Shown: in pieces, positions 1 to 21,700 of the stretch
How the letters are laid out: each line of letters opens with the position of its first letter
Numbering within the stretch: the stretch's first letter is position 1
Assembly (NCBI GenBank): GCA_022703585.1
Contig: JAKLDJ010000001.1
Location: 182,891-246,890 of the forward strand
DNA: 64,000 nt
DNA from: Candidatus Omnitrophota bacterium
Lineage (GTDB): Bacteria; Omnitrophota; Gorgyraeia; Zapsychrales; JAKLDJ01
Reading direction: 5' to 3'
The notes under the pieces: model-generated
Database searches by the model: none
Seen by the model: only the letters and a program-made list of their open reading frames with translations
Told to the model about the DNA's origin: nothing
Translations under genes and position numbers: made by a program

Positions 1-600
1 CAGATCTTGGGGCGTGATCTTATCCATCGGTGTCGGAACGATAGGAATTACTGGCATATTTTGGGCGGCATTCGGATCTCCAGGGTTAGGGCGCATAACC
101 ATCTGCCTGTCCTTTGATGCCATCAGAATGACCGTGCCCTCGGGAATAATCAGTTCATCCAGCCATGGCGGAACAATAACACGGCCCTTACCGAAGTTAC
201 ATACGGCCAATAAGAGCCTCCCGGGATCAAAGGGCCTGTAATATTCTTCCAAAAATTCTCCGACAGGCCGCCCGTTTTTCTTAAGACAAAGCATGCTATC
301 CTGGGAAGCATAACCGTGCAGTTCCAGAATATTTATATCTTGAAAAACATGATATTGGCCGCGAGTCGCGCTGACCAGGTAAACCATGCCTTTCGAGTAA
401 TGTTCCAGTTTCGGATAATAGAAAGACGGAGCATCATCGGGGACAATGCCAAGCACCCTGAGCGTTTCTGCAAGCTCCGTGTACATTCTAAAGACAGCGC
501 CAAGGTCATTCTTGACTTCGGAGTAAATATACTGAAGATAATCCGGCTTATAAATACTGGTAGAATCTGATGCGTCTGCTTCGGCGGTTTGGGGTATCGT
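1..600 (-). other. C-terminal-side domain of unknown function, preceded by a signal-anchor-like segment; a second copy lies at 10363-10960
   Basis: Verified translation includes ...GRPVGEFLEEYYRPFDPGRLLLAVCNFGKGRVIVPPWLDELIIPEGTVILMASKDRQMVMRPNPGDPNAAQNMPVIPIVPTPMDKITPQDL. I could not assign a family. Confidence 0.4.
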
Positions 601-775
601 GCCAGGTCCGGATATAACCGACAGCAAGACCAGCGCCAAAATCAAAACAGGACGTCTCGCCCGAGAGATGTGCCGCGCTTCGCCGACGGCGCGCGAAGAA
701 AGAGGATTATTGTCCGTCCGGATCATCCCCAAAATGGGCCCGGACCCGATGAGGCCTAAAAGACTAAAGAGGGCC
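1..775. repeat. Direct repeat copy A of an intragenic segmental duplication (partner 10363-11137, about 98-99% nucleotide identity)
   Basis: Positions 1-775 align base for base with 10363-11137 with only a few mismatches (e.g. tactgg vs tgctgg, ataacc vs atgacc). Identity ends at 775/11137. The copy may extend beyond the window start. Confidence 0.9.
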
Positions 776-3700
776 GACCTCGTCCCGAGGAGCCATGACA
801 ATAGGGACTCGGCCCCGAGGGAGGCGGGCACAAAACACCCCAAAGCGCCGGAGGTGTCTTTTTTCTCAACCACAGGCGCCGACAAAAGACGCCGGGGGTC
901 AGTCTCGGCTTCAGAAATCTCAGAAAACCATTCCTTAAAGAACCGGAGATTACCGGCCATGGTTATTAAAAGCCTTTTACAGGCAATTAAAGTCATGTAT
1001 TCCATTTTTTCTTTTTCGTCCGCCGTGCCGATCGCAGTCCGTTTGCCCAAATCATTTTTGATAATACGGCTTCTAAAGAGGTGCTCAATGTATTTCACCG
1101 CTGCGGGCTCCGTGAATCTACGCCGCGAGAAAATCCCTAAGTGCTCCGCGGCCCATTTCACGATAAATTTCTGGGCCCATTGCTGCATTTCGGGATGGAG
1201 CCCGGTCAAATCCCTCAACCGGGACTTGATTTCCTTATTGGCAGCCGCCAGATTTATTAAACTGAAGAAATTATCCGTCAGAATCTTGTAGAGCTCATCA
1301 AAATCCTCGCTGCACCCAGCGATCAGGAAAAGCCGGTAAGCCGTATTCTCGATTTCCGCGTTATCGGTTTCGAATTCTTTTAATACAGCGGCCCGGCGCT
1401 GTATCTCTTCGGTAGTGAGCTTCATGATTCCGGACAAATCTTCCAAAATGACATCGGCGCGCCGGGCCGCGCGAAACTTAAGCTCCCCGGCAGATTCCTT
1501 GGGCGCTTTATGTTCTTCTCCCCGGACAAAAGTTGACTCACCTAAATGATAAGTCCGATTTTCATTTCCAAAGCGCTCAGCCAGCGGATGATCGCGAGGA
1601 ATATTCAGCGGATAAATATCGTAGATATGCTGGGGTTTTAATTCTTTGGCATTCAGGATAGCAAATAATTTTTCTTTCTGCTGCGGATCAAAATGTAAGA
1701 TTTTAGGGAAATAGCGGTAACGGCCCCTGGCCGAAGCCCCTTTCCATACCGCCAGACGATAAAGGGCCTCAATTTCTCCCCGCGTCCATTGTCCTAAATT
1801 CACTGCCCTTAAATAGCCCACGACCGTCGAAACAGCATCTTCTTTAAAAAGTTTATCCAGCTTCTTGGCTGTGTCCTTGTCAAAATCCGGATAAACCGCC
1901 ATAAAGAGTGCCACGGAACGGTTCTTGAGAGCCTGCTCTATAAATATCCTTTCCATGGCCTCAAAATGGCTTGCGTCCACTTCTTTGAGCCCGGTTAATT
2001 TCCTGAGCTGGCTGAGATCAAACATCTGCCAATTTTGAAGGACCACTTCGCTGGCATAGAGAGTGAGATGTTTTGCCATGACCTTTAATCTCTTATGGTG
2101 AGCGGCATTGCCGGACTCTGCCGCGCGAACCATTTCCTCCAAAACAGCATGCGAGAGAAACGGCCGGTGCTGAAATTCTTCATCACGGTCAAAGGCAAAA
2201 TCTTCGTGGTTGGCGGCAATTTCAGGATCAATCAGAAATTCCAACGTTTTTTGGGAAAGGGCTGAATGCATCAAAAGCCTGCCAAAATGATCCGGATGAG
2301 AATCCAGTGAATTAAAAATACTTAACGCATTCCACACCGTTTGTCCGGATTCTTCTTGAAAGTGGAGAGCAAAATAGCTCGTGGCATGGGCATATTCGGA
2401 GTGCGCGGCCCCGGCAAAAGAAGCCAAAAACGCGCCCATCTTCCGGCCGAATCTCTGGGGTGCCATTTCCATCAACAAATTCAATGTCCTGGTACCGTCC
2501 ACGTCAAGACGGTTGCTGTAATTACCCTCATACTTTGTCAGGGAATAAAACGCATGAGACGCCGGAATTTGTTCACGCTTATCTGTTCTCCTTGAATAAC
2601 TGTAAAATTTGACCGTGCCGTCCTCCGCTATCTCGGCCTCGCCCCCTGAGTAATAGTCAAACAAGAAATCATCATTCAGGAAGCTTCGGCGAGAAGCCGA
2701 TAAAACAGTTTGAAGAATACACCGCGTCCGGAGCAAATTCTTAAACGTCCACTCGTGGCCCATGGCGCTGCCTTTTTCATCCCTCCATACATGCCAATGT
2801 TCTTTATCAAGCACCTTCACAAGATGCTCAATAAAACGCTCCGGGTTAATTTCTCTTCTGGCTGCCAGGACATAATACCGGTTCATGACCGCATCTTTAT
2901 GGTTATTCCAGTCCTCTTCCGCAAGATTCTCAACGGCCAGGAAAAATTGTTCTGCCGGCATACCGGAAAAAGATTCTTCTGCGCCGGGCCGCGAAAAATC
3001 AAATCCGGGCAGGCAAAACTGGGTGGTTCGATATTCTTCCAAGGCAGGATTGATCGGGACAACGCCTTGATATTCCTGGATAAACTGGACAACAGCGTTA
3101 TAGGTAAACAGCATGCGCAAAACATGCCGTATCTGCTGACGGCCTCCGCATAATTCATAACCTTTATTGCTAAAATACCCCCGGCGTAAGACAGTGTCAA
3201 ATTTCATAAAGCGCCAGGTGATCTTGTCGGCAAACATCTCATAAAGCCCAGAATGATTCATGAAGAAATGCGGCTCATCCCGGACAGTTTTTTCTGTCTT
3301 GGTTTTCGCAATATTGTCAAAATAACCGACGCAGTACGGGTCGGCCGACAAGGGCGATTCGCCCGTGCGGACGGCAAATTCCAGGATAAAGGCCACCGTC
3401 GAGTAGCCTGAAATAAAACGGAAGGCCTCTCCCGGCTGCGGCTTCAGCTGAGGCAAAAGCGTTTCCCTGACTCTGTCAATATTGTCTTTAAAGCGATTAT
3501 CGGTTTTATAGGAATAATGAAGGCTTTGCAAATAACGGTTATGAAAATCAATCCAGCGCTCTTTGTCCGGGATATCGCCTTTTCTTATTTCCGTTGAGGT
3601 ATAAGCACTGCGCATGATTGTGCCGAGAGATTCGTCGTGCATGGGGTCCCGGTAACCACAGCCCATCTCAATGAGTACGATTTCCTGCTCGATCCCCAGG

Positions 3701-6700
3701 GCAATAAGCAAGGCATGGGCTGCTTGATATAGCGAGGTGTCCTCAAGCAAAAAGACCCAGGTTTTCCCGTCGCGGGGGATACTGGCCGCGCGGATAATCA
3801 ATTCAAAGATATCCCGGTTAAGTTCTGCGAAAGAAATCTTTCCGTCATCGAAGAAAACCGGATCATCGGTTTCCGGAGGATTATACGTAAAGCGCATATT
3901 GCCTTTTCTTAAAGCCGCCGCACATTGCGTGCTCATACCAGGCAACTGCTTGCGTTCTTTCTCGCTATCGCATTGATCAATCACGCCTCGGGCGAAGGAA
4001 TCAAAGCGTACTGCCATTTCCTGTGGAGTTAAGACCCGCAGTTTACCGCTGGAGTCTCTGACAAAAAGCGAAGCCATAGGCTCAAGAAGATACATTTGCG
4101 CTGCCCGGGAAAGATCCAGCGCCGCATCCTCGGCCTTTTCGTCCTCCAGAGGGGCAGAGAGTAACGGTGTCTCCACGTGCGCTAATTGCGGCACTTTCTC
4201 ATCCGGATTACTTAACAATCCCGGGACATAAGCCATGTCCAGGTCAGGGTGGTCTACGGACTTTCCAAAATACTTTGAGATTGAACCCGATAAACTTTCT
4301 TCAGGCGAAGTAATACTTTTAATCAGGTTTTCAAAATATTCCTTGACCCGGTCTTTTAACCAACCTCTTTCGTTCTCTTTTACTGTTTCATCATGACGGT
4401 CAGCCATGGCCTCAGCCAACGCCTGAAGGTTCCGGGTGAACTCAACATGTTCCTGGTCCAACGGATAGAGGCTGAAGTCATGGATGCCATTATTAAAATG
4501 ATGGGTTTGACTATTGAGCGGTACCCCTTCATCGCTTAAAACCCAAGCGGCGTTTTGATAAAAGACGATCAGGAAGCTTTTTTTGTGGATCTTGATTTCT
4601 CCGACCCAGGCGTCATCGTTGATTCTGAATATACTGGAATCATAAATGTCCACATAATGCGTTAAGGCCAACGGTAATTGATTTCGGCTAATAAATTGCC
4701 GGACTGCTTTTTGTTCGCGCCGGTTAAATTTCTTGCTTTCATCACTATTCGATTCATAAAAATCATTCTTGATAAGATATCCGCTCAATCGTTCAATAAC
4801 CTCTACGACAAGCCTGGCCTTTTGAACGGTAGGCATAACGTCGATACCACCCAGGAAGGTGAGGGTTTCGTAGGTGCGAGCCAAGCGTACGGCTTCAAGA
4901 TAAAACGGCCTTAAATATTGGGGAATTGATTTTAAAAGGCCAATTGCGGACGGCTTCCCTAAACGCAGCAGGGCAAAATCAATCAGGATGTGTTCGGCAA
5001 CATAAACCTGCGACGAAACGCGCTTGGGCACATCTTTGACGGCACCGTCTTCACCGAGAAGCCCGAGTTTTTCTGCGAGCGCGGAAATCCTCTTGTCCGA
5101 ACCTTTGGCAGTCTTCAATTCCCGTGCCAATACGCGCAGCTTCCGGCGGTCAATGAGCTCTCGGATTTCTTTGCGGATTTGATTTTCCGCTTTGCCTTCG
5201 AGAATGTCCTTTGTCCCGTCGGAAACCAGCCCTAAGACAGACAGGCCCGCCAACACAGCAGTGGCGGGCAGGCCCGTCAGCCCCGTTAGAAATGTTGAGG
5301 GCAATAAGAAAGTTGTTAAAGTTTCTAACGGGGCCAGGGGCAACGAGAAAAACGCGAGGCAGCCTAATGTTTCGATGCCTCGAATCATTTCATCTTGCTT
5401 TAATTTTCCGCTGATAACAATAGCAAGTTGCTCGTATACAACTGAGAAAAAAAGTTGAGAAGTTACATAGTCGGACACTCTTATGCTGCCCAACCCGCAG
5501 TTTTCAATGCGTAAGACGTGCGTGCCGCTTCTTACGAAATAGAGCTGTTCATTGTACCTGCCTCTTGAAAGGGGTTTGATAGCGGTCCATAAGTCCTCAC
5601 TAAATCCTGCAATATTCGCAGTTTCATCGTAATGGATAACGCCAACAAGCTTTCCTGCAGAGTAGTCAAAAACAAGAAGATGGCATCCCGGAGGTTTGTT
5701 AAAAGCTTCCGAAAGAGGGGGACACTTTTCCTTATCCCAGCGGATGCTGATTTTGACTGATTCGGGATCTAGTATCGTCCGATGCAGATAAAGCATGACC
5801 GGATTATTAGTCCCTTTGTAATACACTATTCCTCTGGAAAGCGCGTGCTGACGCAGCCAACCGAGAATAGCCTTGGCAATTCCTTCTATTTGAAAACAGG
5901 ATTGTATGTGCAGGTGTTCCAATAGCAATTGAAAGCCACCAAGATAAAAGACTAAACCCGACGTGCGGCTTTGGCCCGGATCATCGATTCTCAGGTTATC
6001 CAGCCATATTTCATATTCCATGCCATTCGAAAAAGGGTCGCTTGAGCGGACGATTATAATGGTATTGCCTCGATGGGGTATCAATACCTTGACAGGATTT
6101 TCATTTTCATCGCGCCATTCTTGGGTTCCGTCGAGATACGCCACCCTGCGCGTCCACTCTTTCCCTTGGGCCGTATCGTCATCCGCGCCTTCTCGCACCA
6201 TTCCCGCGATAAAGACGGCGGGCCCCGCCAGAAACAGCGGGGCGGGCAGGCCCGCCAAGGGCAAGAAGAGCGACACAAAACACCCTAAGCGCCCTTCATC
6301 CTGCGCGGTCAGTTGTTGATAGATCTCCTGCGCGCGGCGCTGCTGGTCTTCGGATAACCACGCTACAGCGAGCCCATAACTTTTTGCTTCGAGATTCGGG
6401 TCAGGCGAAACAGTATAACGGGAACTGACTTTATTTGTCTTCTCATCAAAATCAACATCGGTTTTCCATAAATCAAACCCGAGTTTTTGCGCGGCAAGCT
6501 TAAGCCCGTCGCGGATATGGGTATTAAAGATAACCGTGACGTTTTGCTGGCGCAGGTAATGCAATACCGCCAGCTGAATCGCCGCCAATTCGAAATTATC
6601 GGTGCCGTGCAGCTCATCTAAAATAAGCAGGCTATCCGGCGAGACACTATTAATCATATCCGCATACTGTTTGAGAATATTAAGAAAATAACTTTCGCCG

Positions 6701-9700
6701 GTTTCGGTCACATTGCGGCCGCCAAAAAACGCCCCGATTCCGCCGAATCTGCTCATGGTTAAATCACCCGAGACATAAAAACCATGCCGGGCAAAGACGG
6801 CATTGATAAAACTATTAAGCATCAAGACACTCTTGCCGCTGGAATTGGATCCGGTTAAGATAAAAACCGGTTTTTGGGGGTTAACCGCAAACGTCTGCGC
6901 CACACCTCCCTGCAAAAACGGCCCACGCCCCCAGAAAAATGAATGGTTCGGGAAGAAGGGCACGCTATTTTCTAATCTAAATGTTCGATACTCATCAACG
7001 AGAGTCGGCGGCTTGATAGAATTCAAAATGACAGAACGGGCAATACCGGTAAATTCATCCACCCCCCTAGCAATCATTTCAAAATCTTTCCCAAGATGCT
7101 GGCAGGCCTCGCCCCATTCAGCTTCCAATCTTTCCCGTTCTTTCTTGCTTAAACCGGCAGGATCAACGGTATATTTTTGGCGCATCTCATCCAGCGCGGA
7201 TTCCTTTTTCTTCAATAATAGTTTTGTTTTGTCAACCAGGGGCTCCTGCGGCAAGGTCTCAAGGTGCTCGATAAGCAATTTCATTTTTTCTGCAAGCGCG
7301 TTGATCTTTTTCTCATTTTCTTTAACATCATATCGCGCCCAGCGAAATTCCCGGTCGATACATTTATTGACCGACGAAAGAAGTTCGGTAATTTTTTTAA
7401 GGTACTCTGCGCCCTGGGAAACAAAAAGCGCAGTCAGGCGCAGGCGGACATCAACCGCATCCTCCTGCGCGGTATCGTCCTCTTTTTCTGTCTGCGGCGC
7501 GGTTGTATCCCTGCCGCCTAAAAGGGACCCAAGAATTTCTTCTTTATCCGTCGGTTCTTCAATATTATCTGCATCGACATCCCCGGTAAATATGCCGAGC
7601 AACCGTTCCGGGGTCTTACGGAACGCGAAATGTTCCCCAGGGTAGAGATTAGCAAAAACCACTTCAAACATTGAAAAAGCCGCGGATTTCTTATCCAGCT
7701 TCAAAGAGGATGATTTGGAATCGCCCATTTTCTTAATCGGAATCTCCTCAATATCGCCCCCCTCGATAATGCAGCGATAATACGCCCGCGCCAAAGTAAT
7801 CATCTCCTTAGGAAACCCGGCCTGGCGCATTAATTCAATCGCGTAGCTGTGTTTCGCGATGCCGGGCACCAGTCCAAAATCAGGAACAATCCGGCCCTTG
7901 TTCTCTTTAACCGTATGCATAAAGGGCTGTTGGCCGGTGCGCGCCTGTAACAACTCGTACATTTTCTTCAAGTGGCTGGTAACAATAACCGTGGCGCCGC
8001 TACGGATCAGATCTTCGATAAGGACCGTGGCAATCGCCACCAATTCGTGATAATCCGTACCCGTCGGGACTTCATCAAGGATAATCAAATCTCCGGGCCC
8101 GGCCTTTTTAATCAAGTCGGTTAATTTTTCAATCAACATCCCGAAATAACCGTATCCTTTGTGCAGCTGTTCCGGCTCGGGAAAGACCGTGTAGATATTA
8201 CGAAAGACACCGATGGCCGGCGCGTCATCGGGAACCGGCAGGCCAACCTGGGTATAAAGCGCGGCACGGCCAAGGCCGCGGGCAGTCGTGGTTTTTCCAC
8301 CCATGTTGGGGCCGCTCAATAAAAGCGCATTATGCCCGCCGCCTAAAGAAATCTCGACGGGGTGAATGCCTTTTAAATCATCCTGTTGTTCTCTTTCGCG
8401 TTTCCGTCGCGTCTTCGCATCAAAGGCCTCAAGGAATCCATCGAAGATGTCACGGTCCGGTTTTGGCTGGAAGGCACGGGCAATGAGAACCGGGTTGCGG
8501 TAACGTGCCAATTGTATAGTGCCGGTAGGCTGCATGATATCGGCAAAACGGTAATTATTCTGAACGGCAAAAAGGGCAACACGCGCGTAATAATCAATTT
8601 CTGCCAAATAATTCTGCATCATCCCTGCCGGGAATTGGCGCAGGAACGAATGCTTGTCGCCGCTATTTTTCGCGCGCCGCCTTGAGGCGTAGGCCTCGTC
8701 TCGTTCCCGGCGTTGACGCCCCGCAGCTTGCCGAACAAAAGAGTCCAGACGTCTTAGGCCGCCTAAGAAGCCATCTGCATCATCATCGTCTTCTACATCC
8801 AAATCGTCATCGTCTGAAGAATCTGAAATTTCTTCCTCATCTTCATCCGGCTCGCTGTCTTTTTTGGCGGCTTTTTGTTGACGCTTCTCAAACAAACCCG
8901 GATTTTGAGGATACGGGTCCCCTTCTATGTGAGATTCGATGTTAATCACCCATAAATCGGATAATTTCTCCACCAGCGAAGAAAATTCTTTTATAACATC
9001 ATCAAAGAGCCCCTGCTCTTGAAGCTGTTGCTGTATTTCCTCCTCCATACTCGGCTTATCATTGTCCGAGTCATCGTCTTCATACAGCGCGCTATAAAGG
9101 TTACGCCCCTTATCGCGCCGATGAGAAGCATTCTTTTCCCGGTGCTTTTTAAGAATTTCCGGAGCGACAAAAACATTCGCATCGACGCGCCAATCTCCCA
9201 CAGCATTTAAGAATTTCCTTCGTTCCAAAAATGGCTTTAGCTCCGGCCGGCGTAACGTGACCTGAATCTTTTCTTTCCATCGTGCCATAACCGGAGAATC
9301 ACTCTCGGGCAATGCCTGTTCGACAGCCTCCAGGCACAAAATAACTCGTCCCAGCGCAATCAAAGCAGGCGCCACGTCGGGATAAGCCTCATCGAATTCC
9401 AGGGGTCCGTCGTTCCATTGCCCCTTGGATTCACGGTCCAAAATACTACTCCTCTCTTTCTTTTTGGGCACAAAGAACGGATAATGGTAGCGTCGTAACG
9501 TGCGCAGCTCTGAAAGAAAGTCTTCTTTTTCTTTATGATAGCGCGCGATTAGTTTTGTAAGCTGTTCTAGCGGATTGTCTTCGCTTGTTCCCTGAGCGGC
9601 AATCTCCATCAGGCTTTCGATGGCACGCCGGGCTATTAGAATATCCTTGTGCTGCCTCCAGGGGCGCAAGAGCCTTTGTTGCAAAATCCTTTGCACGTCT

Positions 9701-12700
9701 TCCGTCGCGTTGGCAAAAAACGGAATAACGTTTTCCAAAAGCCATTCTCCCTCGCTCTTAATTTCTAAATTTACCAAGTCATGCCCTTCAAGTTTCATCT
9801 TTCCGGGCCAAAAATCAGGGTCACCGTAGACGGGAATCCTAAATCTATTTGGTTCTTGGGCATCGTTTCCTGCGTCCTTCACCATCCCCATCACCGGCAG
9901 AAACATTAAGAACGGCCCGGCCCCGACGAGGCCTAAAAGATTAAAGAGGGCCGAGGCGGACAGGAACGCGAGCGGCGATAGGAACATAAGGGCCCGAAGC
10001 GTTTCAACTTCTTTCCAGTCATCGTCCTCCTTCGCCTCATCCCTCACCTCCTCCCAAGCCTCCCCCCGGCCTGGAAGAATGCTGCCTCTATAGTCAACAT
10101 CTTTTGCCGTCGGAAAGATTCTTTCAGGTTGGGCAGCGCCTGACCAACAAGAATCAAAAGGGTTGAAAAGCGACCACCATGTTATAGGCAGCTCTTGGCC
10201 TTTACTGAAACGCTTCCAGTCATCTGCCACAACAATAAAGATTAAAGGAGTTTTATCGGATTGCACTGAATCCGGTTGAAAGCCTATCCAGTCGCCTATC
10301 ATCATGCCAAACCAAGGCTCCCACCAAAGGTGTTTGACGTTGTTTCGCCGCTTGAGAACCTCCAGATCTTGGGGCGTGATCTTATCCATCGGTGTCGGAA
10401 CGATAGGAATTGCTGGCATATTTTGGGCGGCATTCGGATCTCCAGGGTTAGGGCGCATAACCATCTGCCTGTCCTTTGATGCCATCAGAATGACCGTGCC
10501 CTCGGGAATAATCAGTTCATCCAGCCATGGCGGAACAATAACACGGCCCTTACCGAAGTTACATACGGCCAATAAGAGCCTCCCGGGATCAAAGGGCCTG
10601 TAATATTCTTCCAAAAATTCTCCGACAGGCCGCCCGTTTTTCTTAAGACAAAGCATGCTATCCTGGGAAGCATAACCGTGCAGTTCCAGAATATTTATAT
10701 CTTGAAAAACATGATATTGGCCGCGAGTCGCGCTGACCAGGTAAACCATGCCTTTCGAGTAATGTTCCAGTTTCGGATAATAGAAAGACGGAGCATCATC
10801 GGGGACAATGCCAAGCACCCTGAGCGTTTCTGCAAGCTCCGTGTACATTCTAAAGACAGCGCCAAGGTCATTCTTGACTTCGGAGTAAATATACTGAAGA
10901 TAATCCGGCTTATAAATACTGGTAGAATCTGATGCGTCTGCTTCGGCGGTTTGAGGTATCGTGCCAGGTCCGGATATGACCGACAGCAAGACCAGCGCCA
11001 AAATCAAAACAGGACGTCTCGCCCGAGAGATGTGCCGCGTTTCGCCGACGGCGCGTGAAGAAAGAGGATTATTGTCCGTCCGGATCATCCCCAAAATGGG
11101 CCCGGCCCCGACGAGGCCTAAAAGATTAAAGAGGGCCGAGGCAGGCAGAAGCCCCGGAATAAAGCAGGCCAAACCTTTAGGCTCTCCGGTATCAGCAGCC
11201 GTCAAATCACGCTCCCACCACCATCGGCCGCGTTCAAAAACAAAGCGATATCCGGCATCTCTATATAAATCATCAAGCCGTGCAATACTTGTCGCCGGTA
11301 GATAAAGGGTCGTCGCTGAAAAAAGGCTGCTGCCCGCCGGCGCCAAAATTCGCCCCAGCTTTTGCTTTCGCGCATAAGCACGTACGGCCTGTTCAAGAAT
11401 ACGCTCAACCGAACCAAGTTTTTCGCGAACCAACCGCGGCGTACGGCGACAATTGATATAAAGCCTGGCCTGCAGAGTATTGATTTTTAGCCCGGCCTTC
11501 TTGCCTTCAATCTCAAAATCGACAAAGCCTAAAGGAAGTGAGTCTTTAAGCAAGGTTTCACGATATTCCCTGGGGACATCGCTGCCATTAACCCTAAGCT
11601 GTTCGTTAACAATAGGCCTTAACAGCGCCAGCATTTCTTCGTCGTGCAATAATACATTAAGCCTCTTTCCCGGCATTCCCATGCCCAGGCTCAAACTCAA
11701 TGCGCCTTCGTTTGACAAGGTATCCGGCCTAAAACCGGGAAGCGCCACACGCTCATTAATCTTTGCCCGAGATAAATCGAAGATTTGATAGTTGACCGGC
11801 TGTTTCGAAGGAAGGATAGCGAGCGCTCGCTCAAGAATCTTTATCCCTTGAGCTTGCGGGCTTCCGCTTAGATCTGCGCGCCTGATTGTGTCTGCGATAC
11901 AATTAATGTCTGTCGCCCGATTAAATCGACGGCCGTCAAAGCAAGCATATCCGGATTGAAGTGTCTTGGTTGTATAATGACGTAACCCCGCTAAATTTAT
12001 ATTTTTAGAATGATTTTTTCCGGTCACGGCACAATAAACAGTCCACAAAAACGCGATATTACTGCGGCTGGGCACCCTGAGGCTGTTTTTCCTGGCGTAT
12101 ATAAAATAATTTAATAATAGCCCGATGAAATGATTAGGGAATTCATCCAGGATTACACCAAATCCTTGAGCCCCTTCAAAATAATAGAATTCATTTTCGT
12201 AGTGCAAGTGCAATAAATCGGCAATATTAATTAACGGCAAACCTGCCCTTTGCGCGCGCTTGATAAACGGCCAACGCTTCGGGTTAACCAGATGCCGGCC
12301 CATTAAGGACAGCGCCTTTTGCCAGTCCGCGTCAAAATTGTCCCGGATAAACGCGGCCACCTTGTCCGGGTCATCCGTATCCGGCGGCAGCGCATTTTTT
12401 ATCGCCTCAAGCGCACTATCTTCGGTTCTCGGCGCTATACCGGCCATCAACACGGGTAGGAATATCAAGCCGGGAATAAAACAACCTAACCCTTGCGGCT
12501 TTTGGTAATCAGCGGCGGTAATAGTAGCACCCGGAGATCTCTTACGTGCAATCCATGCGACTTCGGTCATCATCCGGCTATACCCGGCCAAGGTCGGGGA
12601 GGGAATAAAACCATACCGGTGTGCCAACGACTGGTCGCGCGCAATCACATGCTTGTGTTCCTCGCTCAAATAGCCGCCCGCGATCAGCGCAACAATTTCA

Positions 12701-15700
12701 TCTCCCGTTACCCTTTCAATGCCGCGAATCAAAGCAATGCTGTTCGAATTATCGACGGTATACCCTACCCAGCGGCCAATGTTGGAAACAAGGACTGCCT
12801 TTTTATGCAATTTCGGCAGCCGCTCAAAAAGAGGCCGAAGATGTTCGGCATCTTTGAGATCACCCCGGATAAGATGGTACTGCCGGCTCGGCCGGTAACC
12901 GTTCAATAAAAGATGTTGTTGTGCCGCGGCTAAGGCTTCGTCGTCTTTTTCTATCAGAACAACCGATGACGCCCCCAATTTCAGCGCCACCAATGACAGC
13001 ATGCCGTCCCCGGCGCCGCAATCATAAATGCGCCTGCCGTCCATGGCGACATTCATCGCGGCTGCCATCGAGGCCATGGTGAAATACATCAGAGCCTTAC
13101 TGTCGACAATCGTATCGTGCAGATTTTTCAGGATAATAACATTGCGGTTAAGGGCTGTCCGCAGGCGGAGACTCAATTCCCCGTAGGCCTCGCTATCAAG
13201 GATAAATAAATGCCCGGCACGGATAAAACAGGAACCGAAATAGTCCGGCCGAAGAATTGGGCAAACAGGTGTGGGCATCCACGCCTCATGTACCTGCGGC
13301 TTTCCGGAAATCCTCTCCCAGCGTTCATTGGCGTATATTTTCTTGCCGTAGACAAGGCCTGATTCTTCCTCGAGCTCCCGGAATCTTTGACCCGACGGCT
13401 CAAGGCGTAATTCTTTAACGATGCGGCGGCTCAGGCGCCGGCACAATTCTTCATCAATTCCGACGGCAGGTGCCGAGAGAGGATTATTGTCCGTGCGGAC
13501 CATCCCCACCAGCGGCAGGAAAGGCAATCCCGGGAGCGTCAGAGGCAGCATAAAACAGCCGAGAGTTTCACGCGTTATTTGCGAAACGTCCTCGAATCCG
13601 TTGGTTGGGCTCTCTAAGGATGTCGCGTATTTTGGAACTACCTCTCGTCGCAAAGATTTTTCTCTGCTCTCTATTCCACGACGAACTGTTGACATCGTCT
13701 TTTCTAAATCTTGGAGGTTTAATTCGCGGCTTTTTCTTATTTCAGAAAGCCTCCTTAAAGCTTCCCCAATAGAATCTTCCAGATAAGACACCGACTCTCC
13801 CCAGGTGGAGAATGGTTTAGAAAGTCCTTTCATTAGAGTCCTAAATATATAATCTTCATTTGCCCTGGCACCCTGAATAACTCGAGACAATATATAAGCC
13901 AGATCCTGGGGATCAATTCTTATTGTTTCCCTGGACCCACCTCTTAAAAATGAAGAATGTGGATGAGAAATGGCTAAAGCTACTTTCAGCCACCAAGGAT
14001 ATCTTTCCCAGTGATAGCTGATCTCCCAAGATTTTTCTGCCTTGGAATATAGGATCTCCTCTTCTTTTTCTGGGGCGATGATTTCCCGAATAAAGTCGGG
14101 TAATCGATCCCAGATATCATCATCCATAAGAGATTGTTTAGTTGGTTTTTTGCCTGGCGTCGCGAGTTTTCTGGAAACTTTTTCAAATGTCTTATGCTCT
14201 TTCAAAGTAATAAGTGTCCCTGGTTTTTTCTTTTGGCCTAACAAGATAAGATCGTTTTTTTCATCTAACATCAGCCCAAGGATATGTTGTATCTGATCAT
14301 AATCATAACCTGCCTGAATCATCAAATTGACGGCAGAGTTCAAAGAGTATGTTCCCCACTGGGGACCCTTTTTTCTTTTTCGAGTTTTCTCTCTTTTCAA
14401 AGGTTTACGCCCCAGTGAACCTAATTTGGCATCTGTGAATTGAGACTTGGATGGTTTTCTTTTCCTTTCATATCCCCCATTGATGGTTTTTATGCCTGGG
14501 GCTGTCTTTCTTTTGTGACGGCTGAGATGATTTTGGCTGGCCTGGCGCGATTGAGGAACTCTCAAGGTATCCAATCGCTTGTCGAGCTCAAGCTTCCTGA
14601 AACGTCTCTGTTTTTCAGCGTATCGAGTACGATAGTCTTCCCAATCTTCAGGACTCACCATCCCCACCATAAAGACAGCGGGTAGGCCCAAGAACGGTAG
14701 GCCCGCCAGCCCCGCTAGAAATGTTGAGGGCAATAAGAAAGTTGTTAAAATTTCTAACAGGGGCAGGGGCAGAATAAAACAGCTGAGCGATTGAGAGGAC
14801 GGATGAAAATCAATAAGCAGAGACCCGAATCTATTCACTTCAAAACTTATTCCGCCAACGCCCTCGGGGACGAGGAATCTCCTGATTAAATCTGCATTAA
14901 AATCTGTTGTTTCCAGAGACGACATGGTTTCATTAATCATCCTACGGTTGTTTACGGCTTCGATATTGCCCAGCCTGGAAGATGTGCGAGCCATCAGGTT
15001 GCAAAAATTGATATTTCGAAATCCGGGAACTCTGAATATTCTGGATATCATCATGGATAAATACAGCAATTTGATTTGCGCCTCCGGGGCCAGTTCCGAA
15101 AGTGCTGTCTCTGGGTACCAGAAGCTGAAACCATTTCTTTCTCTTAACAGAAAGTCATAAAACAGGTCTCGTCCCGCCGGGTCACCGGCAAATACTTTCT
15201 CGACAGCAGGTAACATCCCTTCTTCTTTATCCGGATTGAGCCTGTTGAGCCTTTCTATGGCCAAATTCTGGCGTCCATGAGCAGCCCGGAGACGTTTGTC
15301 AAATATCCCCTCCAGAACAACCTCTACCGCCACGACACCTGTCACGGCCTTGCTGAGGAGAAGCGCTTCTTGAACCACCTCCGCCATCTCCAAGTATATT
15401 TGCTTGAAATAATCAAACAGCTCCTGGGTAAATAAACCTTCAGAAACTGTCGCCGTATCAATCACATTGATAAGAAAATAGAGTTTTAGAATATTGACAT
15501 TCTTCTTCCCGAGCGCGAACGCCATCACCGGGATTAAAACCTCTCTGGTGACCTCCCCCCGCTTCAACTGCCCGATCCAGCCATGTTCCCGGACCATGAC
15601 TAAAGCGACCTCACACTCTTGTTTGGCATAGCCGATTTTTGTAAATGTCTTTTCTCTTCTTAAAATCTCTGCCCCAGACTTCGGGTGGTTGGTAAAATCC

Positions 15701-18700
15701 AGGTCTGCGAAGGCGGGGTCGTTTTTATATTTTTCTGATTTACCGATATCATTCAATAACCCGATATGAATAGACAAGTTGCCAAATTCCTGATAGGCAT
15801 CAAAGAATAAGCCGGTCAAAAATGAAAACGCCTCTCGAGACAAAGGCGTTCTTCCCAGCTCCTCAAACTTGGCGCTATCCTGAAAATCTTCTATCGACAT
15901 GCGTGCCAAGGCTTCGATTTTATGAAGTTTTTTCATAATATGCTCATGGGATGTCGTATCGTAGTCCGGACTCTTGACGACAGTGTGGAAGGCGCGAATT
16001 TCTTCAAATGCCTCTTCCAATTGATTCGCCGGAATAATCGCGAGCGGACCGGCGATTTTATTAATGAGGGGCTGAACCTGGGCAATGGTCAGGCTAAACG
16101 CCGCCATGAGTTTGTGCAATTCTTCTGAAATTGTCGTATGATTGATCAACGGCGCGTCGGTGCCCAAGGCAATATGGATACCGTGCTGGTAAAACCGGTA
16201 GAACGGGTGTTCGAAGATGTCTTTGACAGCGCCTGTCTGGAGATTGCTTGAGGTATTGATTTCGATAATAATACCTTCGTCGGCAATCTTTTTGAGAAGC
16301 CGATTCTGCCGGGTTTTAAGTGCCTCAATCCTGCTTCTGTCGTAGACCTCGCCGTGGCCGTCCAGACTACCGAAAAGTTTCTCAGGGTCCATGCCGGCCG
16401 CGATGCCATGGCCGATCCTGTTAACCTTTAAAATCTTAATGGAATCTTCCATGCTCTTAAGCCCTTCCTCAAGGCTGTCAAAGGATTCGCCGGCGTGGGA
16501 AGTCCGAACCCTAAAGAGCTTCGATGAGCGCACCATCTGATAGGCCTTCTTGAATTTGCGAAGGTCACAGCCTTTTTCCGCTCCGGCGGTATCGATTCCC
16601 ACAAGATGGCTTTTTAAATCAACAGGCACAGACGGGTCATTTTTGATGCGGATAAGTTCTCCCGCGATTTTCTCAGGAATGCCTGCCTCAACGTGCTTTT
16701 CTATGATAACCACCATGCCGTATTTAAATTCCGGGTACTGCCCGGCCACTTTCTTCAACCCCTGATAACAAAGAGTTATTTTCTTTAATACGGAAGACTC
16801 TTCCGACGCATTAACAGGGACGGAAAAACGGAGTTCTAAATACCGAACCCCGTCCGCATAAGCATCTTCGGCAATTTCTCCGGCAACCCGGGTGATATCT
16901 TCATCCGAACGAATCAGCCTTCTTGCGATATCATATCTCCATCGGTATTCGTCCAGCGTGCCGGTTAAATCCGGCCTTCCCTGGCCCGCAATTATCCTGC
17001 CAAGCGCTGCTTCGTTTCCTTCTCTAATGATGGTTTCGAGACTAACGCCGTATTTTTCGTTGATGTCACTCCACGATATCTCGGATTCGTACTTTCTCGC
17101 TAACTCAATCAGCGTAGAAATCCGGGTAGGTACCAAATGAATATGGAAATCCGCGGTTTGAAATGTTCGTTGGATGACCGACCGCACGGTATCCCGGCGG
17201 CTATCGCTGCTTTTCGTCATCCCCGCTAAAAACAAAAAGCTCATCCCCGCCAACGGCATCATGAGGCAGCATTCCAGGCTTTCCTGGCGCGTACCTTCTT
17301 CAATAAATTCTTTAGAAGTGCTTATGCGAAACACCTCCGCATACCACGGCCCCGGATTCGGCAGATACCCCAGCTGTTTTAATATCCTGCCGGTCTTCCG
17401 GTTCCTATCCCGGGCGCGTTGCCAGAATTCACGCGGGTCAAAACTCGGAAATTCCGGCGGGTGAAGCTGCGACCGATGCGCCCGGATACTTTTTATCTTG
17501 CGACGCATGAGATCCCTGCTAAAAGGAACAACAATCAAACCTTTTTCCTGGGCGTCATGAAGCGGCCATTCTTCGTATGCGCCCCGGTAACCCCACATCC
17601 GGATACCATCGGCCGCATCCTCATGACGTAATGCCCGACGGAGAACCTCCGCGCCGAGGCCATGCGCCCCATGCGGGTCCCGTTCGGCGGAATAAAAGAT
17701 ATTCTGCGGTTTAAATTCTTTTAGAACCCTTCGCACCGCGGCCACATCCCCTTGCTCATCAATTGCTTTAATATGGACAAAGCCCCGGTGGTAATAATAA
17801 GGAAGGTCAAGAAAGACGGTATTTCCGACGCCCAGCATGCCGGCCGCGGCACGCGCCTCCGCCTTCCGGACTTCAATCCGTGCCCTGCGCCACAAATCAT
17901 TGATGTCTTTTTCGGACAAAGGATAGCTGCGGCTTAAGGAATCGGCACAAAATTGTTCAAAAAGACGTCTCGTCTCCGGGTCAGTCATCCGAACCGCGTT
18001 CTCTCCCGATGTCATATAAATAACGGTAACATCATTGCCCCGGACCGAAAGCTGCGCAACTGTAGCCGCCATGGTAATAACATCGTCGTCGGGATGCGGA
18101 GAGAATATAACAATGCGTTCACCCCGGGGCAAGAGGTCATGACCAATGCATGAAATCACCGGCCGCAAGAATTCCATAGCCCGTTTCTGTACCGCCCGCA
18201 TGCCGCCGACGCCCTCGATATAATCGGTAGAAAAACCGATATCCTCCATATCCTTAAGGGTCAATTTCTGCACCGTAAGCCCCGGCTGTCGGCGCAATAT
18301 TTCAATTGCCGCCTGAAGCGAACGCGGACGCGTCCATTGTAATCCGAGACCGGCTATTTGCCACGGTGTTCTCCTGTGAGGCAGCTTGCTGGCAGCGTCT
18401 TCGTCTAAAAGCCAACGGACATTCGAATGGTATTTTGTGAAGGTAACAGGAAAATCACCCGTGGGATCATTATCGTAAAGTCTCTTGATAACAGGCGATT
18501 TTTCTTCGCCGTCGGCCAAAATAATAATTTCACTGCTCTCAAGGATATTCATAACACCCAGGGTGATAGCCCGAGACGGCACCGACGCGCTCCAGCTGCC
18601 GCCCATCCGCCTAAGATTATAGAAACGGAATGCGGTATCAAGCCTGGTCTTGGGCGAAAGATCCACCGGCCGGGTGCGGTCAGTCACACGCGAGCCCGAT

Positions 18701-21700
18701 TCATTAAACCCCATATGGCCTCCCAACAGGATCGTACGGCCCCTGGCGTCTTTTAAAAATTCAAATGTTGCAGAGTCCCTGACCGGAAAAGCACCGCCGA
18801 TGCCAATTATCGCCAAATCGGCTTTGCCGCGCCCGGCTTGGGCAATGGCTGCTTGCAGCTGCTGCTCGTAGGCGTCGGCGACCGTTTGCGCGTCACTATA
18901 TTCAAAAACCGGGGGCAGATAGCGGTTGCTCTGTTTGGGGGCCCGCGACGGGTCAATCCGGTCAAGCCGTCGATAAAATACCTCATCCATATAAAACGCG
19001 TAGCTTAAAGGATGCCCCCGCTCAAGGCCGAGGTATTCATCGAGGTTGAAAAAGACAACGCGGGAAAAATCGATCGTGCGGTCTTCTTTGTACCGGCGCA
19101 CCAAGGCGGCCCACATCGGTAAGGGTGTCGCTCCCGTCGGAACGATAATGACCGCATCGGGAATCATTTTAACCAACCTGATCACGCGCTCGGCTGCCGC
19201 TTCGCCCAGCAAGGCACTGTTGGCAAAAATATTAATTGAGGTAGGACTATACAGCGGCCGGCGTATATCCTCCGTCATCCCCGTCATAAAGACAACAGGC
19301 AGGCCCGCCGAAGACAAAAACACCACGCCCGGCAGAAAACAACCCAGGCTGTCATCTATATCATTCCGCGGCGCGGACGCGCGCGCCTTTTGGGCGAGCC
19401 GGTGTTTCACTTCACCAAAAATTTCCCCTTCATTCCACTGAAAAGTAAATTGATTAAACAGCATGTCGATGGAAAGCTCATCAGCCCCCGTGCGCATAAT
19501 AGCCGCTATCATCTGCTCAACCGAAATCTTCTGGGCGATACCCTCGCGCACAATCTTGCGAATATGCTTTGCCGTCTCCCAATCGTTATGGAAAAGTGCT
19601 ATCGCCGCTATAATCCTCCGGTGCGCCCGCCGGTATTTTGGCAGCCGAAACACCCGCGCAATCGCACTGAATCGCCCATAATATTTCAGGCAATAGGCAA
19701 GCCACACATCGCCGGGGACAAGATGTTCTTCGTCAAAATCGACTCTGCCATAAATATCCCGCTGGCGTCTTACATGATGAATATTCGCGCATGCGACAAT
19801 GGCTTCTACAATTCCAATATATGTCCCACCCTGTGAATTTCCATGTACGATTTTGCGCACTGATGAGGCAATGACCCGTTTGGCATAGGCAATATCATCC
19901 AGGGTTAAATACTGCGAGTGTTGAGAATCTTCCAATGGCGAAATCACGAGGTTCCATCGGTCGTCATCAATCGTAGTGGTTGTCTGCGCGTCAATATCCT
20001 CGGGGAAATATTCCAGAGCCGGAATTTCTTTCCACCAATGACCAAATACATCCTCATCGGGAATATCATCCCAGCGCTCCAGGCTCACGCGCACGCCTAT
20101 AGCGGTATAAAACCGTACAATGATGTCGTATAAGTCAGCCCATTTTGTAAGAGGATACGCCTCGCGAGGAAACTGCTGCCGGTATTCTCGTAAGAGATAC
20201 TCGATAAATTTCCTCTCCAGCGCCGCGTAATCAATAACACCCTGCTCGTTTCGAAGCACCGAACCTGAAACCTCAAAGCATGTAATACCATAGTGATGAA
20301 AAACATAAAAAGAACCGTTAAGATGCGAAGCCGTAGCAACGTCATTAAAGCCGGGAAGAATGACAGGCCAAAGCCTGTCCGTCGCCAGAGGGTGATGATG
20401 ACTATGGATATCAGAACCTTCAGCATCTTTGGCCTCAACCCAAACCGTCATCTGCGTTTCTTCCGGTGTCCTCCCCCGGACTAGACGCCAACGCCCGCTC
20501 TCGGAAGAACGATATAGCGCAACCTCAAAACCCAGGCCGGTTAAAGCCTTGAGCATCCCTTTGGTCGGCTTGGCAATATCAAAAATATCACCCGGCTGAG
20601 CATCGACGATCGTCTGTATATCCACATCCCCCGTCATTCCCGTCACAAATAGGGCGCCCAGGCCCGCCAGCCCCGTTAGAAATGTTGAGGGCAATAAGAA
20701 AGTTGTTAAGATTTCTACCGGGGCCAACGCCAGCATTAAAAGGCTTTCGAGACCGAAGCCGGGTAACAGAGCTCTAATAGCCTCCGGGGCTGAACCCCCA
20801 TTTTCCCTGTCCGTCTCTATCTTCTGGCTTAACGCCTTCTTGCACGGATTCGAAATCCATGTATTGGCCTCCGCTGCCCCCTGGCGAATAGCCCTGACAG
20901 TTTTTTCTGAATAAGATGGCACATTAAAATGTAATAACGCCCGTGCGGCCATGCAACGCACGTACTCGTTGGGGTCGTTTAAAAGAAGATCCGCGAGACA
21001 CTCTTCAACTTCTCGCGATTGAATGCCCAATTTCCAAAGAAAGGCTACAAAATTCGACCGATACTGGGTAAACCCAAATTGATCAATCAGCGTATATCCT
21101 GACGCCCTCATTAAAACCTCGCACCCCTCCTGTATTTCTAAATCTGCGATTCTCTGGCCAGCGTCAAGCGCCGCAGTCAAAATGTCGCGATTTGCTTCGT
21201 CATTCTTTTCGACCAAAGTAAGTCCTTCATGTATCAAAAATAGTTTTTCGACCGCCTTAATTAAAGTAACGGATTCAGAAAATTGTCCTGAGTCAGAGCT
21301 TACCATCTCATCGGGGCTTGAAGCCGGCGTTTCGCTAGCCGGGCCGGGCGAAGAATATTTCGCCTTTAAATAGCTCACAGCCATGGCACAGGCTAGGCTA
21401 ATATCACTGATAGGCGTGTCTTCGGCGGGATTATGGCTGATGCCGTTTATGCTGCGGACAAAAAGCATAACAGCCCTGACGCCTTTTTTGGCAAAATATG
21501 CGGTATCGTGACTGGCACCACTGTGAAGATTAAGGAAGGGAATATTTTTTTCGCGGGCGACTCGCCGGAAATCATCCTGCAGATCTTGGTCCAATTCAAC
21601 CGGTTTTCCCGGCGGCCCATGCTCGGTAATCGGATACAAAAGCGTTTCTTTTAAGAGCTGCACTAATGTATCGCGAACTCCTATGTTGTACCCACGAATA

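Follow-up and report, generated by a model that had tools for sequence, protein, structure and literature searches.

A 64,000-nt stretch of the Candidatus Omnitrophota bacterium assembly GCA_022703585.1 (contig JAKLDJ010000001.1, positions 182,891 to 246,890 of the forward strand), referred to here as the window, is filled by one giant gene that contains two near-identical, in-frame copies of a segment of at least 777 bp. On the minus strand (1-63999) the gene appears as a single frame of 21,333 codons that contains no stop and is open at both window ends, and a six-frame scan detected no other stop-free stretch of at least 300 codons in the window. Pfam scans of the whole frame produced matches spread over its full length. 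A first-pass annotation of this DNA had placed both copies of the repeat inside one giant gene, which agrees with this continuous frame. When the positions of a recurrent hydrophobic linker were compared with those of the Pfam domains, the linker motifs fell between the domains, and on this basis the protein reads as roughly 30 cassettes, typically with one enzyme-like domain each and with hydrophobic linkers between them. By its domain content, this giant gene for a multi-cassette membrane protein fits the "Archaeovorin" kind known from Omnitrophota. The repeat described here suggests that duplication or homogenisation of the gene, module by module, was still going on very recently.

Pairwise alignment and a BLASTN comparison of the window with itself were used to delimit the repeat. 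Positions 1-777 and 10363-11139 are identical at 769 of 777 bases (98.97%), gap-free and in the same orientation, and the offset between them is 10,362 bp, or 3454 whole codons, so that both copies are read in the same codon phase. The first-pass annotation had given the pair as 1-775 and 10363-11137 with 98-99% identity; the identity stands and the length is 2 bp greater, while the orientation, the codon phase and the spacing of 10.36 kb were as it had described them. In the direction of the gene, the repeat begins at 11139 in copy B (10363..11139, minus strand; residues 17621-17879) and at 777 in copy A (1..777, minus strand; residues 21075-21333) and runs to lower coordinates. Similarity between the copies ends abruptly at 778/11140. 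The other end of copy A is window position 1, where the window edge cuts the copy in the middle of a domain, and the visible repeat length is thus a lower bound. Because the gene lies on the minus strand, sequence upstream of window position 1 encodes a more C-terminal part of the protein. Self-comparison identified this pair as the only long near-identical repeat in the 64 kb (i.e., the only tract with both a length above 210 bp and an identity above 93%), and chance cannot explain it. A tandem-repeat scan with periods up to 500 bp (Tandem Repeats Finder) misses the pair. Exact 60-nt patterns taken from the repeat matched no contig in the genome and metagenome collections.

The homologous unit is larger than the part that can be seen twice. 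Alignment with two cassettes of P0123, a protein from a Candidatus Omnitrophica metagenome-assembled genome (MAG), extended the homology of the duplicated cassette to the next linker (~residue 18000, window ~9880), and both copy B and the Omnitrophica homologue extend the cassette by another ~120-160 aa. As the cassette continues past the point where copy A is cut, the duplicated stretch has to be longer than 777 bp. What remains of cassette B, including the next linker (residues 18004-18040), occupies 9880..10362 on the minus strand, and a counterpart of it is predicted beyond window position 1, after copy A. A tandem unit of 10,362 bp may begin with these 777 bp.

Read in the direction of translation, the repeat starts with the C-terminal half of a linker, here named linker X (SALFNLLGLVGAGPILGM), for which copies A and B together give SALF[N/S]LLGL[V/I]G[A/S]GPILGM. 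This is followed by a basic loop (IRTDNNPLSSRAVGETRHISRARR in copy B; IRTDNNPLSSRAVGE[T/A]RHISRARR for A/B), by a hydrophobic segment (PVLILALVLLSVISGPG) that together with the AXA-like site after it (PVLILALVLLSVISGPGTIPQTAEA) looks like a signal anchor, and by the first ~200 residues of a soluble domain, which from the positive-inside rule would probably lie outside the cytoplasmic membrane. The repeat had been annotated as a module plus the start of a domain of unknown function, a description borne out by the linker and membrane part and by a domain that matched nothing in Pfam (even at E = 10), in NCBIfam or by fold, and nothing relevant among PDB sequences, where the sole match was 1s7h ykoF (E = 0.95). 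A word-indexed search of 5.8 billion proteins and a profile search also found no relative of the domain. Only an exhaustive phmmer search of 1.84 billion representatives returned one true relative, P0001 (E = 1e-15), together with a weak and probably spurious match (P0002). Both P0001 and P0123, a longer member of the same cluster, are incomplete proteins from MAGs of Candidatus Omnitrophica, encoded on contig fragments of 1.4-2.7 kb that show no wider context, and P0123 consists of two diverged tandem cassettes, each with a hydrophobic stretch, an "NN-x-SS-P" loop, a membrane segment and the domain.

The window copies and both P0123 cassettes have invariant H-G-Y and, 39 residues on, C-N motifs, the latter followed by G, V and P. 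In copy B these motifs span 10561..10680 on the minus strand, with the HGY codons from 10680 down and the Cys codon at 10561-10563, and in copy A they span 199-318, again on the minus strand. A His-Gly followed later by a Cys, the order found in clan CD or C80-like proteases, where each stands at the end of a strand, is shared by all four cassette copies; neither family profiles of clan CD or C80-type cysteine proteases nor a caspase-like fold were matched by the domain. Two AlphaFold models of the domain were weak (predicted local distance difference test scores, pLDDT, of 43 and 62), and Foldseek comparison of these models with the PDB gave no match at E below 0.6. Within these low-confidence models, strand-helix-strand elements are predicted around the His and Cys motifs. 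We refer to it as an orphan His/Cys domain (residues ~17683-18000 in copy B, with the His at 17774 and the Cys at 17813), and from the invariant His and Cys only it is possibly a thiol-dependent enzyme.

Eight positions differ between copies A and B (50, 592, 616, 678, 694, 744, 750 and 764), and they are distributed unevenly. Seven of them fall in the gene-proximal sub-tract (592..777, partner 10954-11139, minus strand), which is 186 bp long and, counted by the method of Nei and Gojobori, carries 3 synonymous and 4 non-synonymous differences with a proportion of synonymous differences (pS) of 0.056. The gene-distal sub-tract (1..591, partner 10363-10953, minus strand) spans 591 bp with a single difference, which is non-synonymous (0 synonymous; pS 0), and it includes an exact run of 541 bp. 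Divergence thus steps from 3.8% to 0.17% near 592/10954, and the contrast was significant in a Fisher test on all sites (P = 2.6e-4) as well as on synonymous sites alone (P = 0.023). This is a sharp divergence step inside a continuous alignment, of the kind that gene conversion leaves, although it is drawn from 8 differences. The tract reads as a mosaic in which a very recent layer of at least 591 bp adjoins an older one of 186 bp, and this argues for two events, not one.

A single recent duplication of the cassette or of a larger block, without a second event and with later differences clustered by a local mutational hot spot, relaxed constraint or chance, is compatible with the overall identity of 98.97% and the one clean breakpoint; in the membrane and loop part, 4 of the 7 clustered changes replace an amino acid conservatively. 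It nevertheless seems improbable to us, as the clustering is significant (P ~3e-4 to 6e-4) and the synonymous sites taken alone (3 versus 0, P = 0.023) are not explained by relaxed protein constraint. Since the synonymous differences are clustered too, relaxed constraint on the protein does not account for the pattern. The first-pass annotation had proposed a recent duplication or gene conversion within the gene, and this remains the best reading, refined by the mosaic to two events.

The kinds of difference also bear on the source of the copies. Seven are transitions and one is a transversion, all four bases are involved, no insertions or deletions occur and the frame is kept, a spectrum that looks like ordinary point mutation in real paralogues. 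Direct repeats within a surface-protein gene are the usual setting of the template and variable repeats of a diversity-generating retroelement, and the short palindromic DNA elements present in the linkers of this gene (described below) might recall an inserted mobile element that carried the cassette. Either origin is highly improbable: the seven transitions and one transversion are not restricted to adenines of one copy, Pfam scans of the whole frame found no domain of a reverse transcriptase, transposase or integrase, and the tract is not bordered by terminal inverted repeats or target duplications. The retroelement was rejected as a candidate on its mismatch spectrum, which is not adenine-specific, and on the absence of a reverse transcriptase domain from the window.

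The position of the breakpoint was examined in the sequence that flanks the two copies. Directly upstream of copy B, outside the near-identical tract, lies the N-terminal half of linker X (GLACFIPGLLPA; 11140..11172, minus strand), and directly upstream of copy A lies that of a second linker, Y (ALGCFVPASLGAESLLSWLLGTR; 778..843, minus strand), which resembles X at the motif level only. The two N-terminal halves share just the motif L-[GA]-C-F. As the N-terminal half of Y is only motif-like to X, the linker at copy A is a Y/X hybrid. Upstream of the distal sub-tract of at least 591 bp, the flank homology therefore comprises the 186-bp older layer and, beyond that, linker similarity at the level of the motif only.

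Part of the same sequence occurs in a third linker. A piece of 41 bp shared with 9915-9955 had been reported by the first-pass annotation; the piece exists and is 44 bp long, with 9914..9957 (minus strand; encoding ASALFNLLGLVGAGP) being 100% identical to 11099-11142. Copy A departs from this 44-bp tract at 3 bases and copy B at none, and the start of the tract lies no more than 3 bp from the start of the A/B repeat. Given the codon usage of the gene itself, the identical codon choice in this tract has P ~2e-8. The linker sequence at the breakpoint recurs, more diverged, in a fourth linker (residue 16813). This linker (13465-13563, minus strand, residues 16813-16845) ends in GMVRTDNNPLSAPAVG, a tail also found where the duplicated cassette begins, and is followed by an unrelated cassette without a membrane segment; the NN-x-SS-P loop motif also recurs in P0123.

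Assembly or consensus building could produce a similar picture if paralogues or strains had been partly collapsed or cross-polished, or if copy A were a chimeric join at an unresolved repeat. The repeat abuts window position 1, as a contig break in a repeat would, and contains a 541-bp exact run that is longer than any short-read k-mer. Assemblies of giant Omnitrophota genes have also been reported to be affected by repeats, with fragmentation and, as a possible mechanism, collapsed multi-copy assembly. The exact run is a hazard for short-read assembly, mapping and polishing that touches any length claim for the gene, and the caveat in the first-pass annotation about misassembly was fair in this respect. 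Still, an artefact appears unlikely. The upstream flank of copy A is unique and has no k-mer in common with the flank of B, and copy A carries 8 private substitutions, from which it follows that some molecule must join B-like sequence to the Y flank. At the junction a well-formed linker is restored with the frame kept, and the lack of a stop over 64 kb speaks for a consensus of high quality. Furthermore, a break at a repeat in a de Bruijn graph would be expected no more than 1 k-mer after the 541-bp run begins, whereas the window edge lies 590 bp in, past a further substitution at position 50.

Taking these results together, we consider it fairly probable that the copies are genuine paralogues, each the start of the same cassette, made by homologous recombination between linkers in two layers. 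An older event would have left ~186 bp of ~96% identical sequence, comprising the linker tail, the basic loop and the membrane segment, at both sites. A very recent exchange that began in this shared stretch would then have rendered all downstream sequence (at least 591 bp, continuing off the window) almost identical. In one version, an unequal crossover between linkers X and Y would have produced a tandem duplication of the whole 10,362-bp interval, of which the window would show just the first 777 bp of the second unit. The copies are direct and in register and have their junction in pre-existing homology, as expected of such a crossover, and the Y/X hybrid linker at copy A is exactly what it predicts. 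In the other version, a gene-conversion tract of at least 591 bp would have been transferred between two pre-existing sister cassettes. Unequal crossover and gene conversion fit equally well, and the sequence that would tell them apart lies to the left of position 1.

Several points weigh against this recombination between linkers. The upstream homology between X and Y is short and at motif level, so that we infer the use of linker homology, as we do the recombination mechanism as a whole and the extent of the copy beyond position 1. The mosaic is based on 8 differences only. Copy number and the junction at A come from the assembled window sequence by itself, the extent past position 1 is a prediction, and polishing of two ~96% identical paralogues could fake the near-perfect distal part. 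The main uncertainty is the read support for the two-copy structure and for the near-identity, together with the extent of the copy past the window.

The linkers in which the breakpoint lies recur throughout the protein. Many of them consist of an acidic stretch, the core L-[GAS]-C-[FL], 15-45 hydrophobic residues rich in P, G and L, the motif G-M-[VIMT] and another acidic stretch. The four-residue core matched 19 times, compared with ~3 matches expected by chance, and 15 of the matches have a hydrophobic segment after them. The first residues of the linker motif lie on the minus strand at 59793, 44628, 37788, 36219, 32931, 28425, 27141, 19347, 14787, 13563, 12489, 11172, 6288, 5367 and 843. 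Using a Kyte-Doolittle criterion (19-residue window, mean of at least 1.8), 35 hydrophobic segments were counted in the frame, of which about 28 are distinct. The linker motif resembles the Cys and membrane segment of a lipobox or MYXO-CTERM-type signal, yet it is internal, and its Cys is missing at the homologous position in the Omnitrophica relative P0123.

Linkers also share sequence as DNA. Ten exact repeats of at least 20 bp were listed outside the 777-bp repeat and outside an array of helix-turn-helix (HTH)-like repeats described below. Hydrophobic linkers hold seven of the ten, all in phase, namely the 44-bp tract and six pairings within a ~70-bp family. Another, of 22 bp (6209-6230 and 43712-43733, minus strand, in phase, 37 kb apart), encodes LAGPAVFI within two hydrophobic segments and is probably one more linker pair with identical DNA, its segments not being motif-defined linkers. 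The remaining two (54661/55171 and 54871/55375) have one member just past the cut-off of the HTH array and belong to that array. With the 6209/43712 pair read as linkers, the linkers are the only other non-tandem sites of the window that have exact DNA tracts of at least 20 bp in common. From the codon usage of the gene itself, identical codon choice in the linker tracts has P ~1e-8 per extra copy, and so improbable a coincidence indicates identity of these tracts at the level of DNA and not conservation of the peptide alone.

The ~70-bp linker element is present in four copies (5267-5342, 14696-14771, 20653-20726 and 28313-28382, minus strand), all in one frame and one orientation. It encodes (L/V)E(I/T)LTTFLLPSTFL(T/A)GL and is surrounded by unrelated flanks. 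A core of 33 nt (TTAACAACTTTCTTATTGCCCTCAACATTTCTA) is identical in all four copies, synonymous sites included (P ~1e-24 from codon usage). The element can form a hairpin with a stem of 13-20 bp (CCCCGTTAGAAAT ... ATTTCTAACGGGG), a loop of 27 nt and a minimum free energy of -29 to -37 kcal/mol. Folding of the entire minus strand in sliding segments of 90 nt indicated that, with the exception of this four-copy element, linkers in general are not marked by stable RNA hairpins. When the palindrome was searched for as a degenerate 32-nt pattern, it matched nothing in the genome collection and three sites in metagenomes, two of low complexity and the third (L002) in a short, ordinary coding region with no giant frame, which looks like chance.

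Older duplications of whole blocks were also detected. A chunked self-search of the protein paired residues 501-1021 with 7309-7817, 1504-1873 with 6863-7251 and 1928-2613 with 4971-5686, at 29-44% amino acid identity, and comparison with the hydrophobic segments revealed that the edges of these blocks adjoin linkers. The spans involved are ~40549-49089 and ~56161-62544 on the minus strand (residues 486-2613 versus 4971-7817; 25-44% amino acid identity), and the three blocks occur in permuted order (a, b, c versus c, b, a), one of them being a SecA-like cassette. Block edges next to linkers and a permuted order together suggest cassette shuffling.

Following this, a broader role for the linkers can be formulated, to which we assign a low probability. 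The linkers would be dual-purpose joints, acting as recombination sites in the DNA and as membrane-insertion or processing sites in the protein, in a gene that is still growing in steps of 1-10 kb. On the DNA side, the 22-44 bp tracts and the ~70-bp palindromic element may serve to duplicate, permute and homogenise cassettes, with the 777-bp copy perhaps the freshest product of such recombination. On the protein side, the linkers could be served by CPBP protease and SecA-like domains embedded in the same polypeptide. If this were true, the polypeptide would amount to a fused "operon" of membrane-tethered enzymes.

An Rce1-like/CPBP intramembrane protease domain (Pfam E = 6e-12) is encoded at 27736-28026 on the minus strand (residues ~11992-12088), directly downstream of one of the palindromic linker elements. 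It scored 35-40 bits against NCBIfam models for MroQ, MrtJ, MrtC and the myxosortase core, whose cut-offs range from 75 to 270, and because its scores are far below all of these it is regarded as a generic CPBP domain. Two sets of SecA-like domains are present in the frame on the minus strand, each with SecA_DEAD (PF07517), SecA_PP_bind (PF01043) and P-loop_SecA (PF21090), and in neither did the frame-wide scans detect the wing and scaffold domain PF07516. The best database relatives of the SecA-like domain are ordinary SecA proteins with ~33% identity, with no giant proteins among the matches listed. Full-length proteins among these relatives (above 800 aa) carry PF07516, and many matches of ~660 aa are without it.

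Further Pfam domains along the frame, all on the minus strand, include sigma-70 regions 2 to 4, MutS_V, A_deaminase, PIG-L, peptidase M20, a glucosamine-6-phosphate isomerase-like domain, a PrmA-like methyltransferase, PPDK_N, HATPase_c and HAD, in addition to the Rce1-like CPBP domain. HEAT_2 was found as a weak match only (E = 0.004), and there are also many HTH motifs. The frame thus joins domains that are normally encoded by separate housekeeping or enzyme genes. A long array of HTH-like repeats, with weak matches to HTH_3, HTH_31, HTH_17 and similar families, extends over ~52546-55716 on the minus strand (residues ~2762-3818); its units are ~50% identical as protein and include one young 186-bp tandem pair with 93% DNA identity (53045-53436). 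A sliding 90-nt scan corrected for guanine and cytosine (GC) content located the most stable local RNA folds at 33296-33385 (z -5.3) and 63626-63715 (z -7.1), both on the minus strand. The former contains a perfect 13-bp GC-rich palindrome (CGGCAAAACCGCC-ggg-GGCGGTTTTGCCG) that lies in the coding frame and has no run of T after it. Rfam matched nowhere in the window.

How bacterial genes of 60-400 kb originate and persist is an open question on which this repeat bears. If our interpretation holds, a copy that is in frame, 99% identical and at least 0.8 kb long (perhaps 10.4 kb) would be direct evidence for continued growth or homogenisation of such a gene cassette by cassette, and a breakpoint in a conserved linker would mark the linkers as the site of these changes.

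Among known systems, the linker motif invites comparison with MYXO-CTERM-type Cys sorting signals, which are cut by CPBP "myxosortases" (PMC11980579). In both cases a motif of a small residue and Cys directly precedes a membrane segment, and a CPBP/Rce1-like domain is found here in the same protein; giant genes of Omnitrophota are, in addition, reported to have type II secretion-like loci nearby. In contrast, the motifs of this gene are internal and followed by acidic sequence, whereas MYXO-CTERM signals are C-terminal with an Arg-rich tail, and the linker motif matched no NCBIfam model of a sorting signal. A MYXO-CTERM-like signal paired with a myxosortase was rejected on the internal position of the motifs, their acidic tails, the lack of a model match and the CPBP score below cut-off.

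The closest resemblance of the gene as a whole is to the Archaeovorin-type proteins, which have many transmembrane regions, carry divergent SecA DEAD and preprotein-binding domains without wing and scaffold, count HATPase_c, PPDK_N, HAD and HEAT among their commonest domains and, in Omnitrophota, often have a type II secretion-like locus next to their giant genes (West-Roberts et al. 2023, bioRxiv 10.1101/2023.11.21.568195). The gene described here shares with them a huge single open reading frame, many hydrophobic segments, divergent SecA sets without wing or scaffold, and HEAT (weak here), HATPase_c, PPDK_N, HAD, methyltransferase and peptidase domains; the only homologues of its duplicated cassette are likewise proteins from Candidatus Omnitrophica MAGs. 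The defining Archaeovorin set comprises proteins of at least 30,000 aa, and this gene encodes at least 21,333 aa within the window. Term searches of West-Roberts et al. 2023 gave no mention of cysteine, CAAX, palindromes, lipobox or gene conversion, and relative to that work the Cys linker motif, the DNA-identical linker tracts and the near-identical internal duplication appear to be new.

Long Omnitrophota proteins were also surveyed by Nielsen & Lui (2026, bioRxiv 10.64898/2026.06.07.730766), who reported that 65% of the Pfam-positive ones repeat a Pfam and, from a tandem-only scan, that nucleotide repeats are mostly "dissolved" with no recent large-scale expansion. Term searches of that study found no mention of gene conversion, palindromes or lipobox. 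Like the genes of that set, the one analyzed here has old, diverged internal duplications. Unlike the general picture given there, it also has two copies of at least 777 bp that are 99% identical and lie 10.4 kb apart.

Two further systems resemble individual features of the gene. Rickettsia palindromic elements are short, multi-copy palindromic DNA sequences that occur in frame within coding sequence, and the ~70-bp linker repeats are equally short, palindromic, multi-copy and in-frame; they differ in being confined to four copies in one gene, one orientation, one frame and one type of linker. In the genes of polyketide synthase (PKS) and non-ribosomal peptide synthetase (NRPS) megasynthases, modules are duplicated and evolve in concert through recombination in conserved inter-module sequence. 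The present gene is similar in being a very long cassette gene with conserved inter-cassette sequence and near-identical modules beside diverged ones. It differs from PKS and NRPS genes in that its cassettes are unrelated enzymes that form no assembly line and its linkers are hydrophobic membrane segments. Overall, the linker observations, which are based on one gene, are the more original part of this analysis, and intragenic duplication in a giant modular gene is an event of a known kind that is new here in its unusually recent date and its informative breakpoint.

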